Virus genome (UHGV): UHGV-0180054
Strand: one strand, 5' to 3'
DNA length: 13,750 bases
Origin: a virus
The notes below the pieces were generated by a model. It saw only the letters and a program-made list of their open reading frames with translations, was not told the DNA's origin and made no database searches. Position numbers and translations under genes: made by a program. Shown in pieces: positions 1-13,750 of the stretch. The first letter of the stretch is position 1. The number at the start of each line of letters is the position of its first letter.

Positions 1-253
1 GCACCGGCTGCAAAAACAGCGACGTGACAATCTTCACGGCCAGCGATTCCGGCGGCAGCTCCCGTCCGTAGCGTTCCAGCACATACTCAGTGGCATACAC
101 ACCGACACCACCGGCAACCACACAGATAACCGTCGCCAGAATCGCCCAGGCAGCGACAAAATTGACGGCCACGCTCTGCGGGTAAATCAGGGACAGTGCC
201 AGCATCAGCGCCAGCGACACGTTCAGCATCAGTGAAAGGGATAATTTCTTCAT
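1..253 (-). CDS. lysA: LysA-like lysis accessory protein, N-terminal 84 codons (C-terminus runs off the window edge)
   Basis: Manual translation of the reverse complement from ATG at 253-251 gives MKKLSLSLMLNVSLALMLALSLIYPQSVAVNFVAAWAILATVICVVAGGVGVYATEYVLERYGRELPPESLAVKIVTSLFLQPV with no stop before position 1. Hydrophobic membrane-type segments; GGAG 6-9 nt upstream; sits immediately downstream of K as in P2. Not in the ORF track because no stop lies inside the window. Confidence 0.7.
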   Translation of the reverse strand, partial: MKKLSLSLMLNVSLALMLALSLIYPQSVAVNFVAAWAILATVICVVAGGVGVYATEYVLERYGRELPPESLAVKIVTSLFLQPV

Positions 254-267
254 GGTGTTTACTCCGT

Positions 268-765
268 TTAAGCCGGTACGCCGCCAGCGGTACGCCAGAC
301 GGTGACCAGTTTTTCCAGTGAATGCTCACGCTGACCGTAACCGGCACCCGGCAGGGACGCCCAGATATTGCGACAGCGGGAAATGGCGCGCTCAATGCGT
401 CCTGCCCGGATGTCATCCAGCGCACCGCGTTCGCGGATCAACTGAATGGCGAGTCTGTCCTGTGACAGCGGACTGAAATCCGGCAGGGCAAGCTGTTTGC
501 GGTAATGCGGCCAGAACAGGTAAAGCTGCTGATAGCGACCGGAGGCCGTGGACTTTTCACCGCGACGGTTAAACACCTTCGCCGGTCGGCCATGTGCGAA
601 CGGGTGGTCACTGTAGTCGGTGAAAATTTCCGGCTTCCCGTCCAGTCCGGTGACTATCACGTCATAGCCCCGGTTTTTCGTCAGCGGATGGTTCGCCGTC
701 CCTTCGGACACGGCCAGCATGTCGAGAAAGGCGGCGATATTCTGGTGCGTGTTAATTACCGGCAT
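268..765 (-). CDS. K: Phage endolysin (P2 gpK-type lysozyme), 165 aa
   Basis: ORF 268..765 minus, starts MPVINTHQNIAAFLDMLAVSEGT, which I recognise as P2 gpK; same length as P2 K (165 aa); start overlaps Y stop by 1 nt (TAATG); position Y-K-lysA as in P2. Confidence 0.9.
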   Translation of the reverse strand: MPVINTHQNIAAFLDMLAVSEGTANHPLTKNRGYDVIVTGLDGKPEIFTDYSDHPFAHGRPAKVFNRRGEKSTASGRYQQLYLFWPHYRKQLALPDFSPLSQDRLAIQLIRERGALDDIRAGRIERAISRCRNIWASLPGAGYGQREHSLEKLVTVWRTAGGVPA

Positions 766-1046
766 TACTGTTTCCCCCTGCCCTTAAAGCGGCGCTGAAT
801 GGCAATCTCAATCACCTGATAACCGGCGATACCCAGCATGGAGCCGATGCCGCACACCGCAGGCAGTGACAGGTCAGGAAACTGCACCAGAACAACACCG
901 GCAACCATCGAGACAAAACCACCGAGCAACATGCGCCCGATAAACAGACGCGGGGTGATGGGTTCACCACCGGCAAGCACCTTGCCGACAACAATCAGCA
1001 CCCCAATCATGAAAAGCGACAGGACGCTTTTTTCTTCTGCTGTCAT
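765..1046 (-). CDS. Y: Holin (P2 gpY-like), 93 aa
   Basis: ORF 765..1046 minus, ATG at 1046-1044; hydrophobic transmembrane stretches (VLSLFMIGVLIVVGKVLAGG, LLGGFVSMVAGVVLVQF) with charged C-terminal tail; directly upstream of the endolysin. Confidence 0.85.
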   Translation of the reverse strand: MTAEEKSVLSLFMIGVLIVVGKVLAGGEPITPRLFIGRMLLGGFVSMVAGVVLVQFPDLSLPAVCGIGSMLGIAGYQVIEIAIQRRFKGRGKQ

Positions 1047-1049
1047 GCG

Positions 1050-1253
1050 TTACTCCCACAGATTGACAGTTTCAGCCACGGGCGCGGTCTGAACGTCGGG
1101 CAGTTCGACGGCGGTGCCGTGTGGCAGCACCGCGCCCAGTTCAGCCAGTCCCGGATTTACGGCGAGCACGGTCTCAACCACGCCCTCAGTGCGCCCGTAA
1201 TACCGGACACAGATGGCGTCGAGCGTGTCGCCCTGTAGCGCAAAGGTCTTCAT
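1050..1253 (-). CDS. X: Tail protein X (P2 gpX-like), 67 aa
   Basis: In-frame ATG at 1253-1251 (MKTFALQGDTLDAICVRYYGRTEGVVETVLAVNPGLAELGAVLPHGTAVELPDVQTAPVAETVNLWE); the track's upstream extension to 1322 was rejected. Start overlaps L stop (TGATG). Size and position match P2 X. Confidence 0.8.
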   Translation of the reverse strand: MKTFALQGDTLDAICVRYYGRTEGVVETVLAVNPGLAELGAVLPHGTAVELPDVQTAPVAETVNLWE

Positions 1254-1762
1254 CAGATTTGACTCACGATGCAGCGCGGCTTGTCCTGAATGCGCGCCAC
1301 TGCCCAGCGCATATCCCGCCACAGCTCATCAATGGTGCTGTCAATGCTGTCAGCCTTCTTGTCGCCTTTGGCACTGGCATCCACGCCGCGATAACGCTCA
1401 TAAAGCGACGCGGTCGCCATCGCACACACGGCGCGTTCGTAGTAAAAAACCTTGATGCTTTCACCGTCGATGTCGTCCGCTGGGACGTCAGCCAGACGCG
1501 TAAAACCGGCAGCAATTTTTTGTTCGCGGTACTCGTACAGCTCCGCATTCGTCTCCGCCATGCCTGACTTGATGGCCTCACGCAGACGGGCGGGGGCGAC
1601 GGTCTGCTCAAGGCGCATACGTTCCCGGACGCGCTTCGGGTCGATATCGGGAAAAAAGAACGTGTTTTTAATCACCGGCTCGTCGCCTGCCGGTTGCGGG
1701 ATGACCACCGTACCCTCACCGGACACGGAAGCCTCCTTTCGCGGAATAATCAGCGTCATCAT
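1253..1762 (-). CDS. L: Head completion/stabilization protein (P2 gpL-like), 169 aa
   Basis: ORF 1253..1822 minus trimmed to ATG ATG at 1762/1759 (MMTLIIPRKEASVSGEG...), with GAGG Shine-Dalgarno upstream; length 169 aa matches P2 L; gene order M-L-X. Confidence 0.85.
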   Translation of the reverse strand: MMTLIIPRKEASVSGEGTVVIPQPAGDEPVIKNTFFFPDIDPKRVRERMRLEQTVAPARLREAIKSGMAETNAELYEYREQKIAAGFTRLADVPADDIDGESIKVFYYERAVCAMATASLYERYRGVDASAKGDKKADSIDSTIDELWRDMRWAVARIQDKPRCIVSQI

Positions 1763-1861
1763 GACTACCTCTGAAAAGTCGGGCGGTGGACGCCGGTGCA
1801 GTGTCAGGTGATTCACCCTCACTGACCGGCGTGCCGCCCTGGCGCGGGGCGCATTCGGTTG

Positions 1862-2605
1862 TTAACTGGCTTTCTTTTTCGGGCGTCCACGTTTTGCCGG
1901 TGTCACGCTCCGGGTCTTACGCGGGGTACGGATGGCCGCTTTGGGCTGCGGCTCCGGCTTCGGTTTCAGCTCCCGCTCCAGTCGTTCAATCTCTTTTTTG
2001 ACGCCTGCCTGACAGTCGAGCTGCGTCGCACGTTGCAGGTGCGCCAGCGCCCCTGCGGCATCACCAGCGTCACGCAGAAACAGACCGGTGATTTTGTGCA
2101 GCTTTGCGCGCACTTCATCAGGCATGTCTGCCGTGGCAGTCAGTTCAAGTGTGTCCGTCAGCAGGCGGGGATCCACAGACTCACCGGCAGCGTGAGCGCG
2201 CATGGCCGCGAGCGCCACCTCCTCGGTGAACATGTACGGCGGGGTGCGGCGGTGTTTACCCGGCATGGTCAGACCGTACTTCAGGGCATAACGGGCAATC
2301 TCCAGCGCGCCGGCAATATCGCCGGTATCCAGACGCCACAGCATGACCGTCATCAGAATGTCATCCTGTGCACCTTTGCCCTGCTCCAGCACGCCGTTCA
2401 CCCACGGCAACCAGAACGGCAGCAGTTCGCGTTTTTTTGCGGCCTTCAGCTCTTTTGAATAAATCGCTTTCAGTGTGCGCTGGTCTGCGGCGAGCTTAAC
2501 CAGCATCTGCTCATAGACAGTTGCATGTCGCAGCGGGGCGGCTTCCCGCTGCGCGGTCATCGCTGCCGAGACCCGCATCATGTGGCGCTGTGCGGGACTC
2601 GTCAT
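1862..2605 (-). CDS. M: Terminase small (endonuclease) subunit (P2 gpM-like), 247 aa
   Basis: ORF 1862..2605 minus, ATG start, 247 aa as P2 M; basic C-terminal tail (RKTRSVTPAKRGRPKKKAS); located between N and L. Confidence 0.9.
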   Translation of the reverse strand: MTSPAQRHMMRVSAAMTAQREAAPLRHATVYEQMLVKLAADQRTLKAIYSKELKAAKKRELLPFWLPWVNGVLEQGKGAQDDILMTVMLWRLDTGDIAGALEIARYALKYGLTMPGKHRRTPPYMFTEEVALAAMRAHAAGESVDPRLLTDTLELTATADMPDEVRAKLHKITGLFLRDAGDAAGALAHLQRATQLDCQAGVKKEIERLERELKPKPEPQPKAAIRTPRKTRSVTPAKRGRPKKKAS

Positions 2606-2608
2606 CGG

Positions 2609-3682
2609 TTACGCTCCCGGCTCTGCGGTCGCTTTAGCCGGTGTGGAGAAGTCACCGACCTTAATTTTTTCCACCAGACAACCGGCGGCATAGTCTTCCA
2701 CCACGTAATCAATGTTCATTGACTCGTAGTTCTCCACGCGGTCGAGTTTCGGGTTTTCCTCAATCACGCGGCGATGGCTGTCATCCATGTAGTAGATGGA
2801 CAGGTTTTCCAGCTTTGTGATGAGCATCGCATCCGCCGGGAAGTACGGGACGCGTACCGCTGGCAGGTTACCGATGCGTTTCTGGCTGATGATGACGTCA
2901 GCGGCCAGCATTTCGCTGTTGTCCTGCTCTTTGTTGACGATGGGGAAATACTTGTCCGCCAGTAGCTGACGCCCCACAATCACCACAAGGTCAGGGTCTT
3001 CCTGATACCACGGTTCAATCAGGTTGTTGGTCGCATCCATCACCAGTGCATCAAGGCTGGCATAATCGCCGCCCTTACCCACGCGGATAACCTCAGAGGT
3101 GGTGCGCCCTTCCTCGTCAGTGACCTTGCTCATCACGCGCGCCGGGGCTTCATTGCGGTATTTCTGCAACCAGCCGACCGCCACATCCTGCAACATCGGA
3201 TTGCTGCTGCGGTCAGAGGTTTCGGCACGTTTCACTCCGTTAAAACCGGCCATGATTAAATCAAGGGACTGGCGTTTGATAATGGCGTTACGGACACGGA
3301 GCTGGAAATCCTGATAACGCGCCCACAGGTCAAGCGTTTTGTAGCGGATATAAAAATCGAAGTTAATCTGGTCGCATTCGTACTTGTTTGACGCCAGCTT
3401 CGAGAAGTCCTTCGGCTGACGCTCGGTGCCACCGGCGGTGTCGGTGGTGCTGGCGATGGAGCCGGTGACACCGATGCCAATTTTTTCCCCTTTCATTTCG
3501 CTGACCGGCACAATATTGATGCGGGTCAGAAAGTCAGAGGACTCCTGCATGGTGTTCATCAGGGTCTGGGTGACTGACGGTTCAACGGTGAATTTTTTCG
3601 ACACATCACCGGCGTCGATGCCGTTCAGTTCGGCAACACGGGACAGGTAGGCATTAAATTTAAAGCGGGTTTCCTGGCGCAT
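2609..3682 (-). CDS. N: Major capsid protein (P2 gpN-like), 357 aa
   Basis: ORF 2609..3682 minus, ATG start with AGGA Shine-Dalgarno (AGGAAAAACT ATG); 357 aa as P2 N; sequence recognised as P2-family major capsid protein; position O-N-M. Confidence 0.9.
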   Translation of the reverse strand: MRQETRFKFNAYLSRVAELNGIDAGDVSKKFTVEPSVTQTLMNTMQESSDFLTRINIVPVSEMKGEKIGIGVTGSIASTTDTAGGTERQPKDFSKLASNKYECDQINFDFYIRYKTLDLWARYQDFQLRVRNAIIKRQSLDLIMAGFNGVKRAETSDRSSNPMLQDVAVGWLQKYRNEAPARVMSKVTDEEGRTTSEVIRVGKGGDYASLDALVMDATNNLIEPWYQEDPDLVVIVGRQLLADKYFPIVNKEQDNSEMLAADVIISQKRIGNLPAVRVPYFPADAMLITKLENLSIYYMDDSHRRVIEENPKLDRVENYESMNIDYVVEDYAAGCLVEKIKVGDFSTPAKATAEPGA

Positions 3683-3740
3683 AGTTTTTCCTGAAATTAA
3701 GGGTTAATCGTGAAGGTTTTCCCGGACTGACTGACGCCGG

Positions 3741-4595
3741 TCAGCAGTTCGTCATCAGGGCGTCACCGCCACCGCCGGTGGCTTTACTGCGGCGCTGCTG
3801 GGTCAGACTTTCGGTGTGGTCGAGACTGTTTTTCAGGCGGGTGAATGCCTGGCTGGTTTCATCCGCCCTGTCAGTCACCTCCTGCTTAAGAGCGGAAAAG
3901 GCAGTTTCCATCTCAGCGAGGCGCTGCTCAGTGGCGCTCAGTTTTTCCTGCACATGTTCAGCAACAGCGGTCACCGCTTCATGCACGTCATTCAGACGGG
4001 CGTCATCGCTGGCCTGTTTGCGGCCAAAAATGGATTTCACCTTTTCGGTCAGGGCGGTGAACACGGTTTCAGGCAGGTCTTCAAATTCCAGCTCAACGGG
4101 CGTTGCCACTGAAATCAGGTTTTCAGGGCTTAATTTGAAGCGGTTCAGGGGGTTGTGTTTTGCCGTGCGGCAGAATTCCAGGTATTCCGTGCCGAGGCTT
4201 GCCGGGTCATCGGTGACGGCCAGCCCCACCAGATAACATTTGCCGGTGTTGGCAAAGTTCGGCTGAATTTCCATTGAGGTGTAGACCTTCTGCGCGGCCT
4301 TGTTCATCGCGATAAGGTCATCGGTCGGGGTGATTTTCGCAAACAGCGCCCATTTGCCTTTCAGCGCCGAATCATCGTCAATCTTTTCGGCCTTCAGTTC
4401 GACCACATCGCCATAACGTTTAAAAATACCGTCAGGCAGGATGCCGCGCAGATGTTCCAGGTTAATGCGGCAACCATAGACTCGCGGGTCAAAGGTTTCG
4501 GCCATTTCCTGAATATCCTGCGCACTGATGACACGCCCGTCACAGGTGTCACCCTCAACGCCGATACGAAAGAATTTTGAGACTTTTTTTGCCAT
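3741..4595 (-). CDS. O: Capsid scaffolding protein (P2 gpO-like), 284 aa
   Basis: ORF 3741..4661 minus trimmed to ATG at 4595-4593 (MAKKVSKFFRIGVEGDTCDGR...) with AGGA upstream; 284 aa as P2 O; divergent from P. Confidence 0.85.
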   Translation of the reverse strand: MAKKVSKFFRIGVEGDTCDGRVISAQDIQEMAETFDPRVYGCRINLEHLRGILPDGIFKRYGDVVELKAEKIDDDSALKGKWALFAKITPTDDLIAMNKAAQKVYTSMEIQPNFANTGKCYLVGLAVTDDPASLGTEYLEFCRTAKHNPLNRFKLSPENLISVATPVELEFEDLPETVFTALTEKVKSIFGRKQASDDARLNDVHEAVTAVAEHVQEKLSATEQRLAEMETAFSALKQEVTDRADETSQAFTRLKNSLDHTESLTQQRRSKATGGGGDALMTNC

Positions 4596-4768
4596 TGTCA
4601 GGAGTCCTGAATAGTGATTAGAGGAGTCACATGTCGGCATCAGTTTCCCGACGATGCGCATCCTCCGCCATCAGTCCCGGATGGCTTATCACTGACACAA
4701 CAGCACCTTAGCGAATCGCGGGGCGCGACTCAGTATCCTTGCCGTGTATTCATCACGGCGAGGTATTC
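4596..4768. promoter_or_regulatory. Divergent intergenic region between O (minus) and P (plus); expected site of the two Ogr-dependent late promoters
   Basis: 173-bp non-coding gap between divergently oriented operons; in P2 this gap holds the late promoters for the P-Q and O-N-M-L operons. Contains inverted repeats GTCGG-N10-CCGAC (4633-4652) and TCGCG-GGG-CGCGA (4716-4728). I could not find an exact TGT-N12-ACA Ogr motif. Confidence 0.45.
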
Positions 4769-6541
4769 ATGACCATCACCACAGACACCACTCTTTTACA
4801 CGACCCGCGTCGTCAGGCGGCGCTGCTGTACTGGCAGGGATTTTCCGTGCCGCAGATTGCCGCCATGTTGCAGATGAAACGCCCGACGGTGCAGAGCTGG
4901 AAACAGCGCGACGGCTGGGACAGTGTTGCCCCCATCAGCCGTGTCGAAATGAGCCTGGAAGCGCGGCTGACCCAGCTCATCATCAAACCGCAGAAAACCG
5001 GCGGTGACTTCAAGGAAATTGACCTGCTCGGACGCCAGATTGAACGACTGGCACGGGTAAACCGTTACAGTCAGACCGGCAACGAGGCAGACCTTAATCC
5101 GAACGTCGCTAACCGCAACAAAGGCGGTCGTCGCAAACCGAAAAAGAATTTTTTCAGTGACGAGGCCATCGAAAAGCTGGAGCAGATTTTCTTTGAGCAG
5201 TCTTTCGAATATCAGTTGCACTGGTATCGCGCCGGGCTTGAGCACCGCATCCGCGATATCCTGAAATCCCGCCAGATTGGCGCGACATTTTATTTTTCCC
5301 GCGAGGCGCTGCTGCGCGCCCTGAAAACCGGTCATAACCAGATTTTTCTGTCGGCCAGTAAAACGCAGGCGTATGTGTTCCGCGAATACATCATCGCCTT
5401 TGCCCGGCTGGTTTACGTTGACCTGACCGGTGACCCGATTGTCCTGGGCAATAACGGCGCAAAACTGATTTTTCTCGGCACCAACTCCAACACCGCACAG
5501 AGCCATAACGGTGACCTGTACGTCGACGAGATTTTCTGGATCCCGAATTTTCAGGTACTGCGTAAGGTGGCATCAGGTATGGCCTCACAGAGTCACCTGC
5601 GCTCGACCTATTTCTCCACCCCGTCCACACTGGCGCACGACGCCTACCCGTTCTGGTCGGGTGAACTGTTTAACCGGGGACGCGCCAGCGCCGCCGAACG
5701 TGTGGAAATCGACGTCAGTCATAACGCCCTTGCCGGTGGGCTTCTCTGTGCGGACGGCCAGTGGCGGCAGATTGTCACCATTGAGGACGCCCTGAAAGGC
5801 GGCTGCACGCTGTTCGACATTGAGCAGCTCAAACGTGAAAACAGCGCCGACGATTTTAAAAACCTGTTCATGTGTGAATTTGTTGACGACAAGGCGTCGG
5901 TGTTCCCGTTCGAGGAGCTGCAACGCTGCATGGTCGACACGCTGGAAGAATGGGAAGACTATGCGCCGTTTGCCGCCAATCCGTTCGGCTCCCGCCCGGT
6001 ATGGATTGGTTACGACCCGTCACACCGTGGCGACAGCGCCGGATGCGTGGTGCTGGCACCGCCGGTGGTGGCCGGAGGTAAATTCAGAATACTTGAGCGT
6101 CACCAGTGGAAAGGCATGGACTTTGCCACCCAGGCTGAATCCATCCGCGAACTCACCGAAAAATACAACGTCGAATACATCGGAATTGATGCCACCGGCC
6201 TCGGTGTCGGCGTGTTCCAGCTCGTGCGCTCGTTCTATCCCGCCGCGCGCGATATCCGCTACACGCCGGAAATGAAAACCGCAATGGTGCTCAAGGCAAA
6301 AGACGTTATCCGCCGTGGCTGTCTGGAATATGACGTCAGCGCCACCGACATCACCAGCTCGTTTATGGCTATCCGCAAGACCATGACCAGCAGCGGACGC
6401 AGCGCCACCTATGAGGCCAGTCGCAGCGAGGAAGCCAGCCACGCCGACCTCGCCTGGGCGACCATGCACGCCCTGTTAAATGAGCCACTCACCGCCGGTA
6501 TCAGCACCCCGCTGACATCCACCATTCTGGAGTTTTACTGA
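4769..6541 (+). CDS. P: Terminase large subunit, ATPase (P2 gpP-like), 590 aa
   Basis: ORF 4739..6541 plus begins with TTG in the track; the first ATG at 4769 (MTITTDTTLLHDPRRQAALLYWQG...) follows GAGG and gives 590 aa, the P2 P length. Stop overlaps Q start (TGATG). Confidence 0.9.
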   Translation: MTITTDTTLLHDPRRQAALLYWQGFSVPQIAAMLQMKRPTVQSWKQRDGWDSVAPISRVEMSLEARLTQLIIKPQKTGGDFKEIDLLGRQIERLARVNRYSQTGNEADLNPNVANRNKGGRRKPKKNFFSDEAIEKLEQIFFEQSFEYQLHWYRAGLEHRIRDILKSRQIGATFYFSREALLRALKTGHNQIFLSASKTQAYVFREYIIAFARLVYVDLTGDPIVLGNNGAKLIFLGTNSNTAQSHNGDLYVDEIFWIPNFQVLRKVASGMASQSHLRSTYFSTPSTLAHDAYPFWSGELFNRGRASAAERVEIDVSHNALAGGLLCADGQWRQIVTIEDALKGGCTLFDIEQLKRENSADDFKNLFMCEFVDDKASVFPFEELQRCMVDTLEEWEDYAPFAANPFGSRPVWIGYDPSHRGDSAGCVVLAPPVVAGGKFRILERHQWKGMDFATQAESIRELTEKYNVEYIGIDATGLGVGVFQLVRSFYPAARDIRYTPEMKTAMVLKAKDVIRRGCLEYDVSATDITSSFMAIRKTMTSSGRSATYEASRSEEASHADLAWATMHALLNEPLTAGISTPLTSTILEFY

Positions 6542-7611
6542 TGAGCAAGAAAAAACGGAAAACACCGCAACCTGCGGCAAAAACAATGACCGCCAGCGCC
6601 CCGAAAATGGAGGCGTTCTCCTTTGGTGAGCCGGTGCCGGTCCTCGACCGCCGTGACATTCTGGATTACGTCGAGTGCATCAGTAACGGCAGATGGTATG
6701 AGCCGCCGCTCAGCTTTACCGGTCTGGCAAAAAGCCTGCGTGCTGCCGTGCATCACAGCTCACCGATTTACGTCAAACGCAATATTCTGGCCTCGACATT
6801 TATCCCGCATCCGTGGCTTTCCCAGCAGGATTTCAGCCGCTTTGTGCTGGATTTTCTGGTGTTCGGTAATGCGTTTCTGGAAAAGCGTTACAGCACTACC
6901 GGTAAGGTCATCAGACTGGAAACCTCACCGGCAAAATATACCCGCCGTGGCGTGGAGGAGGATGTTTACTGGTGGGTGCCATCCTTCAACGAGCCGACGC
7001 CTTTCGCGCCCGGCTCCGTGTTTCACCTGCTGGAGCCGGATATTAATCAGGAGCTGTACGGCCTGCCGGAATATCTCAGCGCCCTTAATTCTGCCTGGCT
7101 GAATGAATCAGCCACGCTGTTCCGCCGCAAGTATTACGAAAACGGCGCTCATGCCGGATACATCATGTACGTCACTGATGCCGTGCAGGATCGCAACGAT
7201 ATCGAAATGCTTCGCGAAAACATGGTGAAGTCAAAAGGCCGCAATAACTTTAAAAATCTGTTTCTCTATGCCCCGCAAGGGAAAGCCGACGGCATTAAAA
7301 TTATCCCGCTCAGTGAAGTGGCAACGAAGGACGATTTTTTTAATATCAAAAAAGCCAGCGCCGCTGACCTGCTGGACGCGCACCGCATCCCCTTTCAGTT
7401 GATGGGCGGCAAGCCGGAGAACGTCGGGTCGCTGGGTGATATTGAGAAAGTGGCAAAGGTCTTTGTCCGCAATGAGCTTATCCCGTTACAGGACAGGATC
7501 CGCGAGATAAACGGCTGGCTCGGTCAGGACGCTGAAAAAATAAAATCAGCACCCCCGCCAGCGCGCAGTGCTTTCCCCGCCTCGCCCGCCCGCTTCATGG
7601 GTCGGTTTTAA
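6541..7611 (+). CDS. Q: Portal protein (P2 gpQ-like), 356 aa as read; 3-prime boundary uncertain
   Basis: ORF 6541..7611 plus, ATG start coupled to P stop; sequence recognised as P2 portal Q. The last ~25 residues (SAPPPARSAFPASPARFMGRF) are low-complexity and overlap the cos 19-mer, so the true C-terminus may differ (P2 Q is 344 aa as far as I recall). Confidence 0.8.
   Translation: MSKKKRKTPQPAAKTMTASAPKMEAFSFGEPVPVLDRRDILDYVECISNGRWYEPPLSFTGLAKSLRAAVHHSSPIYVKRNILASTFIPHPWLSQQDFSRFVLDFLVFGNAFLEKRYSTTGKVIRLETSPAKYTRRGVEEDVYWWVPSFNEPTPFAPGSVFHLLEPDINQELYGLPEYLSALNSAWLNESATLFRRKYYENGAHAGYIMYVTDAVQDRNDIEMLRENMVKSKGRNNFKNLFLYAPQGKADGIKIIPLSEVATKDDFFNIKKASAADLLDAHRIPFQLMGGKPENVGSLGDIEKVAKVFVRNELIPLQDRIREINGWLGQDAEKIKSAPPPARSAFPASPARFMGRF
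7568..7586. other. cos cohesive-end sequence (P2/186/P4-type 19-mer)
   Basis: Plus strand reads GTGCTTTCCCCGCCTCGCC, the exact reverse complement of GGCGAGGCGGGGAAAGCAC, which I recall as the 19-nt cohesive end shared by P2, 186 and P4. Late operon (P, Q) and early operon (A side) both point toward it, as on the circular P2 map. Confidence 0.55.
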
Positions 7612-7714
7612 TGCAGGTGCACGAACACACTGGAGACGCACCAGTACTGGCGGTGGTCACGTAGATCCGCCCCTTAAAAGCCATGCAGAATAATGCAACT
7701 ATTGCGGGCGTCGG

Positions 7715-8134
7715 CTAATCATCTCCTAAAGGTGGAATTTTGATGCCACTAATTAGCAGTACTTTCCGATATGCCTCAAAAATAATGTTGTGTGTTTTTT
7801 GTAAATCATCGAGCATTTTTTGCCGTCCTGCTGGGGTATCTTTGGCAAAATTATGAGCGCGAAAAAAATCATGTGCCAAGTAGTTTCTGGCTTTAAGAGC
7901 ATCTGACACATACTCCAGTGTATCAGCATCCTCCACCATCCTAGATTTCAGTGCGTAATTCAATTTACCCAGCGTGTATTTATCCATTTCTAAAAACTGT
8001 TTTTTCAGCGACTGTATATCTTTCCCCTGACTCATATCATACTCAGTGATAACATTTATCAACTCAGTCTCCAGTAATTGAGCTGCTTCCGAAGCATAAC
8101 CAAATTTCCAATAAACCGTATCAAGCGTCACCAT
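7715..8134 (-). CDS. Hypothetical 139-aa protein, hotspot cargo (candidate partner/immunity/regulator of the upstream HNH protein)
   Basis: ORF 7715..8134 minus, ATG at 8134-8132, stop TAG at 7717-7715; AT-rich codon usage unlike the phage core; mildly acidic (about 21 D/E vs 18 K/R), no motif I recognise; 91 bp downstream of the 443-aa gene on the same strand. Confidence 0.6.
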   Translation of the reverse strand: MVTLDTVYWKFGYASEAAQLLETELINVITEYDMSQGKDIQSLKKQFLEMDKYTLGKLNYALKSRMVEDADTLEYVSDALKARNYLAHDFFRAHNFAKDTPAGRQKMLDDLQKTHNIIFEAYRKVLLISGIKIPPLGDD

Positions 8135-8225
8135 ATAATCTATTCCCCATATAATAAATCACACCCCAAATTAAATCATAATACATAATTAAATCTAACG
8201 CCTCGCTGCACCAGAAGAAGTCATG

Positions 8226-9557
8226 TTAACGCTTATCATGGAACTTTTTCCATTTTGTCATCAACTTTCCAGCATCAAGTTCTACATGATGCGGTTGTAG
8301 AGTTTTTCCCTCAAACATAGTTTTGTGGATACAATTAATAGAGAAATGAACCGTTAAGTCTTCTGGATTAATCCCCATTAATCCTTTATCAAACATTCGG
8401 TGTAAACTTACTTCAAGTAACAGGCCATTAGATGTGTTATTATTTGCCGATTCTGTTATTGCTTCAATATGTGCGGCTTCCAATATCCCCTCTGGCAATG
8501 GATAGCCAGTAATAGCACATCTGCCATTGAAGTTATCCCAAACACGGCGTTTGAAATCAGCTTGATCTCCAGCATGACGGACTTTGTGAGTAACCTCGAC
8601 TGTTCGTCCTGTAGCACAGGTATCGTTTGCGGCCTTGAAAGGATTAGTTAGACTTTCATTAATGGCTATATCCGTTCCATCCATGATAAGAGATATTTCA
8701 TTATTGGGTTCGTGTGATGTTAATGGACTTATGTACTGATTGCTTAAAAAAGTCATACTAGATTCTTCATCAGTCGCGAGTTTCCACGCTTCTGATTGTG
8801 TCATTGTTAGCAATGCCGTTTGATAAACTTGCTTATTAAAATAACGTTTATCTTTCTTGTCACTCCCCATATTAATAGTACTAGATTTAATCGGAAGTGT
8901 TTTATCACCAATTAGTAGATCACGTATTTCTACAGTCTCTTCTAAGGTATCAATAGGAGCTACTATAGGGTTAGTAAACGGGTTATCTACATGATCTACG
9001 TGGTTGTGTCGTAAATGCCACTCTATAGCACTATCTTTTATATGTATCTCGCAGACAGGGCATACAATAAGCCCCATAGATGTTACAGGTAGCTTTTTGC
9101 CACCGATTAAGCGTAATGTATTTGCATTCTGGTTATGTACTTTCTTTTGGTTCTGTGTCAGTACACTACGCTTAGCCTCTAAACGGGTCGGAATCTTAGC
9201 AAGATTAAGCGATTTACGGCTCTCTTGTCTCTCAAGATCATAGATCCGAATCCCTGCTTCAGTTTTGATTTTTGTCCACATAGAGATAGAACTAAGGAAT
9301 TTATGTCCATGTACTTTTTCATAATCAGCATAAACTTGCAAAGTAGCAGTGGAACTATCTAATCCTTTTTTACGGAGTGCTGTATATTGCTGAAAAAGAT
9401 TAATAGCATGAGCTGTAATAGAGCGCCTATTCTCTATAATTTGCGCTTTTTTTGCTGCTTGTTCTGCTTGCAATGCTTTTTGTTCAGGGGTAAGCGACTT
9501 CTTTTTGGTTTTCTTGGTTCTTTTCTTACTCAAAATTTTCTTACTGTTATTGTTCAT
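8226..9557 (-). CDS. HNH (HNH_2-type) nuclease-domain protein with lysine-rich N-terminus and central Cys/His cluster, 443 aa, hotspot cargo
   Basis: ORF 8226..9557 minus, ATG start with AAAGG upstream. C-terminal residues ~341-410 read GRCAITGYPLPEGILEAAHIEAITESANNNTSNGLLLEVSLHRMFDKGLMGINPEDLTVHFSINCI, matching the C-x-x-TG ... AHI ... NGL ... H-x-x-FD signature of HNH_2 (PF13391-like) endonucleases. Residues 5-40 are a K-rich basic tract; residues 166-189 CPVCEIHIKDSAIEWHLRHNHVDH resemble a zinc-binding motif. About 33-38% GC. Confidence 0.75.
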   Translation of the reverse strand: MNNNSKKILSKKRTKKTKKKSLTPEQKALQAEQAAKKAQIIENRRSITAHAINLFQQYTALRKKGLDSSTATLQVYADYEKVHGHKFLSSISMWTKIKTEAGIRIYDLERQESRKSLNLAKIPTRLEAKRSVLTQNQKKVHNQNANTLRLIGGKKLPVTSMGLIVCPVCEIHIKDSAIEWHLRHNHVDHVDNPFTNPIVAPIDTLEETVEIRDLLIGDKTLPIKSSTINMGSDKKDKRYFNKQVYQTALLTMTQSEAWKLATDEESSMTFLSNQYISPLTSHEPNNEISLIMDGTDIAINESLTNPFKAANDTCATGRTVEVTHKVRHAGDQADFKRRVWDNFNGRCAITGYPLPEGILEAAHIEAITESANNNTSNGLLLEVSLHRMFDKGLMGINPEDLTVHFSINCIHKTMFEGKTLQPHHVELDAGKLMTKWKKFHDKR

Positions 9558-9666
9558 TTTGCAAGCCTTTAATCTAATTCATGGAAAGGGGCATTCACTT
9601 GCCCTGTATCCAGTAAACTGACATAACACGATATAAGCAAGCTCCGTAATTCTTTCATGTTAATCA
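9558..9666 (-). promoter_or_regulatory. Intergenic region between A stop and the 443-aa cargo gene; candidate terminator/promoter for the cargo cassette
   Basis: 109-bp gap; weak hairpin (stem around 9588-9592 / 9601-9605) followed on the minus strand by TTTCC; weak sigma70-like hexamers (TTGCTT-17nt-TTTACT on the minus strand). Assignment is speculative. Confidence 0.25.
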
Positions 9667-11943
9667 TCAATGGTCCATTGTGAATCCCGCCCCCTCATAA
9701 GCGACCGGATACGTGAACTTTTTCCCGTCATAATTTACGGTTGCCCCACGCGCCAGCGCCTCAAGCTCCCATCGCTGCGGCCTGATACCGTTCTGAGCAA
9801 GGTCAACGCGGATACGGGTAATTTGCATTCGTTCCGACCGGGTCATTCTGGCCGATGGCGCTATTTCATGCGGTTTTAACGGGCTTCCGTTTCTTTGCTG
9901 ACGATTTGGTGTTCTCATGTCGTGTTTTAATGCGCCCCTGAGCGCCCTCACGACCTCCGGGTCATTCCATTCGATAACACCGTCATCTACCAGATTAAGC
10001 ACTGCTGCGGCGTGTTCAGAAGGTGTGGGAGCCGGTAACGAAGTATCACCACCGGTGAGCTTTCCACAGTTATTGACAGGACTCCGAGGCGCGGCGATGC
10101 CGCTTTTTAAAGTCAAAGGCTCAACGACCGGAACTTTCGGCACAATGCGCCAGTCCGTCGTTCTGGTGATATGAATATGACGCGCGCCGAGATGCGGCGC
10201 GTAAATGCCGACCACTCTCTCGACTTCTTCCTCGTACTCGTTAACGTCATCCGACGGGCTACGGGCGACCCTGACAGTCTGACAATCGCGCGGGACATTT
10301 GCCCCGCCCTGCGCGCTGATATACAACGCAAAATCACCACTGTCTGCAGCGGCGCGTGCAGCCTCGACGCGCTCGTCAAACTCATCAGCAATGCTGACGC
10401 CGCGAGGCAATTTGCGTAGTTCACGGTAAGCCCCCATTGTCGGCAGACCAACCGTTTTAAATTGCGGGATGCGCCACGTTGACGCCCATGCGGTAACAGC
10501 CGCGGCAGTATCTTTCAGCGGTCTGCCGGTATCATTATCGAGCTGACCATCCAGTGCATAGCCGTCGATATTTTTTGAGATGTATTTCGCGATATACCCC
10601 GCAGCACCGCCCCGGTTAAGATGTTTTGCCTGAAAACGGTTTCGCGCGGCTCCTCTTTCGTCTCCATCCTCTTTGAGCGCGTAGCGACGCATGATTTCAA
10701 TAATCTGGTTACGCTGGCGTGGATTACAAAAAAGCATCATATGCCAGTGCGGCGTTCCGTCGTGGTGTGGCTCGACGACACGCAAACCGTAGACCTGTAA
10801 ATCATTATCCTTGAATGCCGTGCGCATCAGGCTCCAGATACGGCAGAGATAACGCTGCGCATCCTTTGGATTAAATGCCTCATCGTTCCAGCCGTGATTA
10901 AGCTGCACGGTTTTACTTTCGCCTTTTCCGACCTGACGTGTCGGGTGATACTTTGACGGCGCGGTCAGCGTGATAAACATCCCCACGTCACCCTCTGCAG
11001 CGGCGTAACGCTCAATACCGGCAATGGTGTTCATCAGCTCCATCCGGCGAATTTCAGGATTAGAAATACTGCCCATCACCTTACTGATAAGGTCGATGCG
11101 CTCGCCGGTTTCCCTGTTCTCAAGGTCACACGATTTAAGAAACTCCAGATTTGCCTGGCGGCGCGCACGCACATCACGAATGGCATGTTTACTGGCATAA
11201 GGAGAACGGTCTTTATTGACCTCCCCGACAGCAATCAGTAACGCCTCATGCCAGCGCATACGCTGGCCTTTAAGCTGATGAGTCCACCACTCATCGTTAA
11301 ACAGGCGGGCAATGGCAGAATATGCCTGCCTCGTGGTCATCTGTCCTTTACGGTATTTTTTCCAGTAGAGAGGGGAAATATTGAAAGCACGTGCAGCGCC
11401 AGCAACATGACCATAGAGGTGAGCCTGCGCCTCATCCGTAAACAGCGATTCTTTCTCGCCATGCGCATCCACCCAGGCATCGCAGAGTTCCTCATACATC
11501 ATGAAAAGCTGTGATGAGATACGGGCGGCAAACTTTTTCAGCTCCTTGTCATTCATCCCCGGCAGGCGCGCATAATGGTCACGCTCTGCCAGAAACAGCA
11601 ACGACGCGTCGGTGTTCATTTCATGGCGCTGATTCACGCGCTCAATGCGCGGCCATAAACGACGCTGAAAAGTGGATGTGAGGAAATAAAACCCGTGCAC
11701 CGGGCTTTTATTGCGCCGGATGTAGTCATAGCGTGAAGTAAACAGCGAGCGCAAAAAGTAAGGCAGGCGGTTAATCGTGGATAAAACACCTTGCACCTGA
11801 CGCATCTCGTCACGTGTAAGGGGTCTTTCGCGCCCGACGGCCTCGCGTGGCGCGTTCCATGCATAAGCACCGGTAAACGTCTTACCGGTGCCTGCGGCAA
11901 ATGCTGACGGAGGGACAAAATGCCCGGAGGCTTTAACGGCCAT
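9667..11943 (-). CDS. A: Replication initiation protein, rolling-circle endonuclease (P2 gpA-like), ~758 aa
   Basis: ORF 9667..11985 minus begins with TTG in the track; first ATG at 11943 (MAVKASGHFVPPSAFAAGTGK...) matches the P2 A N-terminus as I recall it. Contains HUH-type motif (PHWHMMLF) and paired-tyrosine motif (AAGYIAKYISK) typical of rolling-circle initiators. Last gene of the early operon. Confidence 0.9.
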   Translation of the reverse strand: MAVKASGHFVPPSAFAAGTGKTFTGAYAWNAPREAVGRERPLTRDEMRQVQGVLSTINRLPYFLRSLFTSRYDYIRRNKSPVHGFYFLTSTFQRRLWPRIERVNQRHEMNTDASLLFLAERDHYARLPGMNDKELKKFAARISSQLFMMYEELCDAWVDAHGEKESLFTDEAQAHLYGHVAGAARAFNISPLYWKKYRKGQMTTRQAYSAIARLFNDEWWTHQLKGQRMRWHEALLIAVGEVNKDRSPYASKHAIRDVRARRQANLEFLKSCDLENRETGERIDLISKVMGSISNPEIRRMELMNTIAGIERYAAAEGDVGMFITLTAPSKYHPTRQVGKGESKTVQLNHGWNDEAFNPKDAQRYLCRIWSLMRTAFKDNDLQVYGLRVVEPHHDGTPHWHMMLFCNPRQRNQIIEIMRRYALKEDGDERGAARNRFQAKHLNRGGAAGYIAKYISKNIDGYALDGQLDNDTGRPLKDTAAAVTAWASTWRIPQFKTVGLPTMGAYRELRKLPRGVSIADEFDERVEAARAAADSGDFALYISAQGGANVPRDCQTVRVARSPSDDVNEYEEEVERVVGIYAPHLGARHIHITRTTDWRIVPKVPVVEPLTLKSGIAAPRSPVNNCGKLTGGDTSLPAPTPSEHAAAVLNLVDDGVIEWNDPEVVRALRGALKHDMRTPNRQQRNGSPLKPHEIAPSARMTRSERMQITRIRVDLAQNGIRPQRWELEALARGATVNYDGKKFTYPVAYEGAGFTMDH

Positions 11944-12208
11944 GTGAGCCAAAAGCCTCTGAACAACGCTTGCTGAGTTGCTCAACCTGCGCGTTTAAAT
12001 CAGCAAAAGACTTTGCGCTTCCGGTCAGAATATCGTGATGCATCATGCCGGAAACGAGCTGGCTTAATTTCGGGTAATAACCAACCACCGCCAGCCATTC
12101 CTGACCGGCGTTTTTACCACTTTCAGCTCTCTTTTTCTCGTGGAGAATAAACTGAAAGCTGTCACTGGTAACGACATAACGTTCGCCAATTTCAATACGA
12201 ATACTCAT
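11933..12208 (-). CDS. Small early-operon protein (P2 orf83 position), 91 aa
   Basis: ORF 11933..12208 minus, ATG start with GGAG 8 nt upstream; overlaps A start by ~11 nt and is coupled to the upstream ORF by ATGA; function unknown. Confidence 0.6.
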   Translation of the reverse strand: MSIRIEIGERYVVTSDSFQFILHEKKRAESGKNAGQEWLAVVGYYPKLSQLVSGMMHHDILTGSAKSFADLNAQVEQLSKRCSEAFGSHGR

Positions 12209-12429
12209 GCCATTCTCCGGTAATGCTTGTTTTTTGCTTCAAAGACTGACTGGCAGGAAACACAACGCGTGACTGACGGATAAGCCGCACGACGGGCAGC
12301 AGGTATTGGCGCGTCACACTCTTCGCAAACCAGCGCAGAAACACCGCAATGCTTTACCCTTGCCGCGTTAATCTGGCGCTCCAGTAATTCAGCCTGTTGT
12401 TCCTGAATAAAATCTACGTTGTCCGGCAT
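12205..12429 (-). CDS. TraR/DksA-family C4 zinc-finger protein (P2 orf82 position), 74 aa
   Basis: ORF 12205..12429 minus, ATG start with AGGAG 7 nt upstream; CEECDAPIPAARRAAYPSVTRCVSC gives C-x2-C-x17-C-x2-C, the spacing of TraR/DksA-type zinc fingers common in P2-like early operons. Confidence 0.7.
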   Translation of the reverse strand: MPDNVDFIQEQQAELLERQINAARVKHCGVSALVCEECDAPIPAARRAAYPSVTRCVSCQSVFEAKNKHYRRMA

Positions 12430-12731
12430 TACCAGCTCCTTTTGTCGTTCAGCTTCTTAAATTCATCAGCGCAATAGCTGGCGATTTCTGTCGTTAATTT
12501 TGTCAGTTCATCCACGGATGAAATTTGCTTATGAAATACAGCGCGTTTAACAAGTAAATTGACCACATCAGACAGGAGATTTAATTCGTTCTGATAAATC
12601 GCGAAAACAGATTCAGTTATTTCGCGTTTTTCTTTATCAAGACCAAGTTGAATAAGAGACAAATCGCCATTTTTCATAACGGCGATTTTTAAGGCATTGT
12701 TCAGTAATACAACTGAATGAGAACAGGACAT
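12429..12731 (-). CDS. Small early-operon protein (P2 orf81 position), 100 aa
   Basis: Track ORF 12429..12734 starts with TTG; first ATG at 12731-12729 with GGAGG upstream; start overlaps upstream stop (TGATG); function unknown. Confidence 0.6.
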   Translation of the reverse strand: MSCSHSVVLLNNALKIAVMKNGDLSLIQLGLDKEKREITESVFAIYQNELNLLSDVVNLLVKRAVFHKQISSVDELTKLTTEIASYCADEFKKLNDKRSW

Positions 12732-12955
12732 CAAAGCACCTCCCCGCGAGACAATCCGATGTTGTGAAATTTTTCCGACTCCTGACTGAGCAGCTCGACT
12801 ATCTCCACGCGGGATAACTCCGCCTTTGTGATGTGGCGAATCATGGCGTCAAGATGAGAAGAAAAGCGCGTCGCTGCGTCGGCCTGTGCTTCGGCTCTGG
12901 CCTGTTGCAGCAGTAATGCGTATTTACCGCACTGATTTTCAGAAACTGTATGCAT
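12731..12955 (-). CDS. Small early-operon protein (P2 orf80 position), 74 aa
   Basis: Track ORF 12731..12988 begins at a non-ATG codon (ATT); first ATG at 12955-12953 ([18 protein letters not shown]...) with GGAG 6 nt upstream; function unknown. Confidence 0.55.
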
Positions 12956-13018
12956 GACTTTCTCCAGGCAAAAAGAAGCCCCGCACAATTAAGTGCGTTA
13001 AAAACTCTGGTTAATTAC

Positions 13019-13519
13019 TTAATGCAGATATTGCTCTGGTTTTACCGACGTCAGAATTGTCGGTGCATACTCAAACAGACTGAATAATTCACGTAATGCA
13101 CGGAATAAAGCATCACGCCAGTAACATGATTCTTCATTAATTCGCCAGTATGGCTGGTTGAATTCTTTTTCAGTCAATCCGGCATGCATAAATAAAGTAC
13201 GACGCTGACTGACTGTTAAAAAACTAATATATGCATACTCACTTGCGCCAACCTGACGGCGTTTTGAGAATGCCCCACGCAATTCATCAATTGCACAAAC
13301 CAGCCGTTCACGTTCGACGTCGTTCATTTCTTCAAAACGCATCGTTGCGTGACGCTGTTTTAACTGCGCATGAAAGCAAACCGTTAACCGTTCGCGCTCC
13401 ATCATCTGATTATAATAATCACATGTATCCTGCCAGCGAGGGACGGCAAGATGCTTACCAATTATCCGGCGCATAGCTGCTGGCTGTTTCTCAACGAGAT
13501 TAAGCGTCATCACTGTCAT
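13019..13519 (-). CDS. B: Replication protein B (P2 gpB-like, helicase-loader type), 166 aa
   Basis: ORF 13019..13525 minus; second ATG at 13519 (MTVMTLNLVEKQPAAMRRIIGKHL...) has GGAGGG at proper spacing and gives 166 aa; sequence recognised as P2 B; located between cox side and the orf80-83 cluster. Confidence 0.8.
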   Translation of the reverse strand: MTVMTLNLVEKQPAAMRRIIGKHLAVPRWQDTCDYYNQMMERERLTVCFHAQLKQRHATMRFEEMNDVERERLVCAIDELRGAFSKRRQVGASEYAYISFLTVSQRRTLFMHAGLTEKEFNQPYWRINEESCYWRDALFRALRELFSLFEYAPTILTSVKPEQYLH

Positions 13520-13686
13520 TTCCATACCCTCCGGCTTTTCAGAAAGGTCAGAGCCTTCTTTAACGGACTCTGTTTTTTGGTGCGGATAATGATTCCCTTA
13601 CGCCCCTTACCGTGGGTGATGGTGAAGTCAATCGCCCTGGGGCTTTCGTTACGCAGTAACTGAGCAATACAACGAGGTTCATTCAT
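13516..13686 (-). CDS. Small basic protein between cox and B (P2 orf78 position), 56 aa
   Basis: Track ORF 13516..13710 begins with GTG; in-frame ATG at 13686-13684 preceded by a strong AAGGAG Shine-Dalgarno; product MNEPRCIAQLLRNESPRAIDFTITHGKGRKGIIIRTKKQSPLKKALTFLKSRRVWK is K/R-rich; stop overlaps B start. Confidence 0.5.
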   Translation of the reverse strand: MNEPRCIAQLLRNESPRAIDFTITHGKGRKGIIIRTKKQSPLKKALTFLKSRRVWK

Positions 13687-13696
13687 ACGGTTCTCC

Positions 13697-13750
13697 TTAA
13701 CGTGGTTCACCGAGACCTAACCACATCAACCAGCCGTCACGAATCTCTTT
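13697..13750 (-). CDS. cox: Cox (excision/immunity-switch control protein), C-terminal 17 codons plus stop (5-prime part outside the window)
   Basis: Reverse complement of 13697..13750 translates KEIRDGWLMWLGLGEPR then TAA, which I recognise as the C-terminus of P2 Cox; position upstream of B on the same strand fits the P2 early operon. Confidence 0.55.
   Translation of the reverse strand, partial: KEIRDGWLMWLGLGEPR

Follow-up and report, generated by a model that had tools for sequence, protein, structure and literature searches.

In phage P2, genes P and Q form one late operon with tQ as its usual terminator. In its genome (NC_001895), cosL occupies nt 1-19, tQ nt 160-181 and Q, on the complement strand, nt 187-1221, with an untranslated spacer of 167 nt between Q and the cohesive end; that such a spacer exists was correctly stated in an earlier note on the present DNA. 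Phage 186 resembles P2 in this respect, the stop codon of its portal gene W being followed by the terminator tW, a spacer of ~145 nt and a 19-nt cos. When the cos junctions of P2 and P4 are set side by side, the sequence they have in common consists of the 19-mer with exactly 29 nt on its right-end side and 7 nt on its left; a 55-bp core common to P2 and P4 is credited to Ziermann and Calendar (1990), as cited in PMC9594776 and PMC5694545.

Here, I show that in the virus genome UHGV-0180054 the portal reading frame runs through cos, and that this overlap goes back to the absence of a short piece of DNA that is present in all close relatives. The window, i.e. the whole stretch of 13,750 nt that was analysed, contains the following features around the site (strand in brackets where one applies).

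4769-6541 (+), terminase large subunit gpP, overlapping the start of Q by 1 nt as in P2 (gene calls, P2 annotation)
6541-7611 (+), chimeric portal (gpQ) open reading frame of 356 aa, with its TAA at 7609-7611 (ORF list, translation, Pfam, portal alignment)
6541-7527 (+), true gpQ part of the chimeric frame, codons 1-329 (alignment with P2, 186 and other portals)
Codons 330-356 of the chimeric frame (+), accidental read-through, DAEKIKSAPPPARSAFPASPARFMGRF (same alignment)
7528-7531, deletion junction at 7529/7530, with the GA at 7528-7529 common to both sides (gapless BLAST blocks)
7530-7567, leftover 38 nt of the Q-to-cos spacer, including an A6 run at 7535-7540; non-coding in all relatives, translated here
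7561-7615, intact 55-bp cos core, with the 19-mer between 7 nt of left and 29 nt of right-end flank (ungapped comparison of P2, P4, UPEC85 and the window)
7568-7586 (-), 19-nt cohesive-end sequence, P2 cosL, which reads GGCGAGGCGGGGAAAGCAC on the minus strand (exact match)
7587-7611 (+), last 8 codons and TAA of the chimeric frame, lying in the future right end of the virion chromosome

In reverse complement, GGCGAGGCGGGGAAAGCAC has a single match in the window even if up to three mismatches are allowed, 0.01 matches being expected in shuffled sequence, and the 19-mer is identical to nt 1-19, the annotated cosL, of both P2 and fiAA91-ss. According to the gene calls it is situated between the portal gene Q and the cos-proximal cargo/gpA region, and the core around it is identical to that of the UPEC85 prophage at 55/55 positions and to that of P2 at 53/55. 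It had been noted beforehand that an exact copy of the cos 19-mer in reverse complement occupies 7568-7586 and that the portal frame stays open through it to the TAA at 7609-7611; both observations hold, the frame 6541-7611 containing the whole 19-mer and ~14 of its codons lying in or past it.

Two prophages provide the closest background. That of UPEC85 (L004) is 97.8% identical to the window, whereas a prophage in E. coli GCA_043074035.1 (L145), found via the 139-aa protein encoded next to cos, reaches 99.94% identity over all 13,750 nt and lies in the bacterial chromosome beside integrase and host genes. Together with the contiguity of both cos flanks in the window, the chromosomal position of L145 bears out the earlier suggestion that the sequence stems from a prophage or circular form. 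Both prophages share the cos-adjacent cargo genes of the window, but have an intact Q of 344 aa, tQ and the spacer.

Compared with UPEC85, the window falls into two gapless BLAST blocks (440-7529 and 7528-13750) between which 177 nt are present in UPEC85 only; compared with L145, the blocks are 1-7529 and 7528-13750. The difference amounts to one clean deletion, with no other indel over 13.3-13.75 kb in comparisons with P2, fiAA91-ss, UPEC85 and L145, and its length is 176 bp if L145 is taken as reference, but 177 bp with UPEC85 or P2 (NC_001895, about nt 58-234). The same gap recurs in larger collections: a BLAST search of 7300-7760 against 50,697 phage records matched 136 of them, none in one piece, the 287 nt of the window up to the end of the 19-mer corresponding to ~464 nt in phage records, and in 2,153 E. 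coli genomes 261 nt of the window correspond to 438 nt. At the junction the window jumps from ...GGCTCGGTCAGGA (Q codon 329/330) to CGCTGAAAAAATAAAATCAGC..., a point which in relatives lies 38 nt from the 19-mer. The two sides have a microhomology of 2 nt (GA, within TCAGGA / T(C/G)AGA).

The overlap of portal and cos is thus explained by a deletion of 176-177 bp, after which the truncated frame happens to be open for 27 codons. What has been lost comprises Q codons 330-344 (EVIRFKNYSLDTDN[D/G]) with the stop codon, the tQ hairpin GCCGCCTGCGGGCGGC followed by T6, and ~110 bp of spacer. One of the explanations offered in the earlier note, namely that this phage has lost the spacer and that its portal C-terminus is reconstituted only upon circularisation, is right in its first half, for the spacer is gone; circularisation rebuilds nothing, and the last 15 codons of Q, its stop and tQ have disappeared as well.

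Two further explanations had been put forward, i.e. a frameshift or miscall near the A6 run that hides the stop of Q, and a misplacement of cos. The A6 run and the TAA at 7541-7543 are where they had been reported, while the out-of-frame TGA given as 7532-7534 is one base off (7533-7535). The run and its flanks have the same sequence in the intact relatives, where they are non-coding and lie ~120 nt downstream of the real stop of Q, and a misplacement of the 19-mer is at odds with the annotated cosL of P2 and fiAA91-ss (nt 1-19) and with its embedding in the conserved P2/P4 core. Either explanation is refuted by the alignments. The left end of P2 and the portal C-termini of P2 and 186 show the same cos and portals that end well before it.

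As for the portal itself, the domain is clearly recognised (PF04860, E 8e-14, 51.9 bits with a cut-off of 39.1, residues 89-322), and residues 1-329 align with P2 Q nearly without a difference. P2 residues 330-339 form a conserved segment, E[VI][VI]xFxx[YF]x[LI], in place of which the window has DAEKIKSAPP...; its new tail is rich in Pro and Ala and replaces EVIRFKNYSL. The 27 codons of the tail run through the leftover spacer and the 19-mer and stop at the first TAA, 25 nt into the right-end flank. The replaced segment is far from variable: tblastn alignments of P2 Q extend to residue 339-343 even at 47-60% identity, and the motif is kept in portals of seven genera, one of them with a recombinant Q 3' end, including those of Escherichia, Klebsiella, Ralstonia, Burkholderia, Mannheimia and Pseudomonas phages. 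In the cryo-EM model of the P2 virion, residues 27-340 of gpQ are resolved (bioRxiv 10.64898/2026.09.14.750843); a search of PDB sequences with the window portal returned no chain at E <= 0.001. Because a C-terminal segment is lost that is conserved throughout the Peduoviridae and ordered in the structure, the portal of the window is probably impaired in assembly or function. On the evidence of the alignment, the 27 codons across cos are best described as translated spacer, cos and right-end flank, not as a portal C-terminus that circularisation restores.

The end of the operon is likewise affected. In UPEC85 the terminator scan locates tQ (GCCGCCTGCGGGCGGC-T6) at L004 7142-7157; in the window, the same scan found no tQ directly after Q, only weak hairpins of 5 pairs being left. 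Since tQ is lost, a late P-Q transcript would run across cos and become antisense to the cargo genes on the minus strand. Two weak terminator-like hairpins flank the 19-mer, both being present in UPEC85 too: GCGCTGGCGGGGGTGC followed by a T-rich run at 7549-7564 (-), whose stem is altered by a private change at 7554, and GCCCGCTTCATGGGT followed by CGGTTTT at 7588-7602 (+), within the cos core.

The cos site seems to have fared better. The end of the deletion lies 31 nt outside the core, and other elements carry foreign DNA still closer to it, for in P4-like satellites and in the P2-like loci L055 and L147 unrelated DNA begins directly after GCGCGCA, and in another locus (L127) only ~9 nt of this left flank are kept. 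P4-like satellites must be packaged by a P2-type terminase. Given the intact core, which the P2 terminase recognises in P4 too, and the existence of elements with unrelated DNA up to it, recognition and cutting of cos are probably retained in the window; by the same comparison, the flanks that remain may suffice for cleavage by gpM/gpP into 5' overhangs of 19 nt and for packaging.

To what extent the junction is peculiar to this contig was seen in several collections. In IMG/VR, 120 loci with the P2-type cos sequence were detected by a scan. The table of loci in which a portal gene lies upstream of cos comprises 96 rows, but the window and its copy L005 account for two of these, which leaves 94 for comparison. 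In 92 of the 94 the portal stop codon is situated 157-173 nt before cos, the outliers being L127 (79 nt) and L055 (942 nt), while a negative distance (-44) occurs, within the 96 rows, in the window only. When a 40-mer with the junction at its centre was searched by megablast, where the 20 nt on each side are too few for a match to intact sequence, it hit neither the 5,426 complete E. coli genomes nor the 50,697 phage records, and junction 24- to 30-mers were not found in GTDB representative genomes, IMG/VR or JGI metagenomes. The exact 356-aa portal protein is on record for one contig only, as is the exact gpP protein. In these collections, the deletion is confined to the present contig, and a phrase search of the literature yielded no relevant precedent for a gene that spans a cos site.

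The window corresponds to ENA ERZ1034798 NODE_128, a singleton SPAdes metagenome contig with a coverage of 2.61 (~2.6x), and at such a depth the junction might have been created by a chimeric or template-switched read, or by another low-coverage assembly error, the true sequence being an ordinary succession of Q, tQ, spacer and cos. Beyond the deletion, eight substitutions separate the contig from L145 (at 4736, 5414, 6619, 6642, 7554, 9690, 9693 and 9699), all of them transversions (G>T twice, A>T, A>C three times, G>C, C>A); most copy the adjacent base, and three are crowded into 9690-9699 at the 3' end of gpA. With the ~2-3:1 ratio of transitions to transversions in natural relatives, eight transversions out of eight have a probability of ~2e-5 to 2e-4, and, because they are so improbable as natural divergence, the eight substitutions are best taken as uncorrected read errors in the contig. 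One of them, the private A-to-C change at 7554, falls inside the leftover spacer, 24 nt from the junction (p ~0.03); around the junction the local depth probably amounts to a single read or so and, in view of this private change, the junction may rest on a single one.

Low coverage, error-like substitutions, one of them 24 nt from the junction, a contig otherwise identical to the intact prophage L145 and the absence of the junction from every collection searched all speak for an artefact, and amplification-based libraries (e.g. by multiple-displacement amplification) can yield template switches of this kind. The junction itself, however, is not easily generated in vitro or in silico. Ligation and PCR chimeras seldom join collinear points of the same strand that are 176 bp apart. 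The ends of the deletion share only 2-4 nt, by which a skip of the assembler between repeats is ruled out; since repeats of k-mer length are absent from the flanks of the deletion, a de Bruijn assembler would have needed a read spanning the junction, without which it could not have passed over 176 bp. All in all, an artefact is a tenable explanation, albeit the less probable one.

A real and very recent deletion in a P2-like prophage of E. coli appears somewhat likelier, with a probability of roughly 0.55. Events in vivo classically leave a local deletion of this kind, collinear, on the same strand and with microhomology, and relatives (L127, L055, L136, L140 and L147) show that the stretch between Q and cos is readily rearranged. 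Replication slippage or illegitimate recombination across the 2-nt GA microhomology would have removed 176-177 bp and joined Q codon 329/330 to the point 38 nt from the 19-mer; the truncated frame would then run, by chance, across cos to the TAA, and one would expect cutting at cos to survive, the portal to be impaired and the late transcript to pass cos.

Might the locus instead be a viable, evolved compact arrangement, in which the phage tolerates the altered portal tail and the portal gene straddles cos, has its 3' end at the opposite terminus of the virion chromosome and becomes whole only after ligation of the cohesive ends? The frame is indeed open across cos, the 55-bp core is intact and so are all other genes on the contig. 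Moreover, as a late gene Q is expressed when the DNA is circular, and its splitting in the virion would not stop expression. Against this, the arrangement is unique among thousands of relatives; its new tail is translated non-coding DNA, put in place of a segment conserved across genera and ordered in the virion; and a background 99.94% identical to that of an intact prophage leaves no time for selection. Such an arrangement is therefore most doubtful. The chimeric frame would be split in linear virion DNA, but this has no consequence for function, because circular DNA is the template for Q and the distal 27 codons do not encode portal. Were the deletion real and the phage viable, the virion would carry a split portal gene joined at cohesive-end ligation, and the conserved C-terminal strand of gpQ as well as tQ would have to be regarded as dispensable, which would make the locus a curiosity, not a mechanism.

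Other changes near cos were met with among the relatives. The IMG/VR locus L127 has an independent deletion of 90 bp in the spacer, ~80 nt upstream of cos, Q and tQ being intact, and loci of the L055/L147 types carry ~1 kb of foreign DNA between Q and cos, which abuts the core exactly at GCGCGCA. The insert (L147 5028-6043, also in L136, L140 and L055) has two ORFs of 89 and 156 aa, neither with a PADLOC match. Q of the L147 type has a recombinant 3' end that keeps the C-terminal motif, along with an in-frame stop at codon 210. L147 also has a 355-aa ORF with a small-terminase domain, possibly a fusion; in the window, the small terminase (247 aa) and gpL (169 aa) are separate at this place. 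Of the 120 IMG/VR loci, 29 (e.g. L018, L038 and L052) have a P2-type cos (GCGCGCA and the 19-mer) and no portal within 1.6 kb; the left flanks of these portal-less loci are highly diverse beyond the 7 nt, and many of them are 94-100% identical to the right end of P4 and are therefore P4-like satellites.

On the other side of cos, a hotspot of P2-like phages has been described (PMC9122126). In the window this defence hotspot, between gpA and cos, holds a two-gene cargo, 7715-8134 (-) and 8226-9557 (-), which is present also in UPEC85, GCA_043074035.1 and several metagenome contigs. The 139-aa product has no Pfam match and a weak PADLOC match (PD-Lambda-3_B, E 0.002), whereas the 443-aa product has an HNH_2 nuclease domain (PF13391, E 7e-11). 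PADLOC assigns no named defence system to the pair, which may be a candidate defence system of the kind surveyed in PMC9122126.

Taken as a standard P2-type cos/portal locus with a private 176-bp deletion, in a contig with read errors, the window carries little biological weight. A caution may be drawn from it, namely that odd reading frames in singleton contigs of <3x coverage call for a comparison with near-identical relatives before any interpretation. As regards cos, the natural variants (this deletion, if real, L127 and the L055/L147 types) all spare the 55-bp P2/P4 core, which fits the view that, on the Q side, conservation of cos does not extend beyond the core.

To sum up, the window is like P2 in the order P, Q, cos, in the 1-nt overlap of P and Q, in the identical 19-mer and in 53 of 55 core positions; it is unlike P2 in being without the equivalent of nt 58-234 and in having a reading frame that ends 25 nt past the cohesive-end sequence. 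In phage 186, which belongs to a different genus (Eganvirus), the portal gene also ends well before cos, unlike in the window. Relatives with independent changes between Q and cos (L127, L055, L136, L140 and L147) keep the stop codon and the C-terminal motif of Q, and in none of them does Q run into cos. The locus is a known P2-type Q/cos arrangement that carries a lesion or an artefact, and not a new kind of system.
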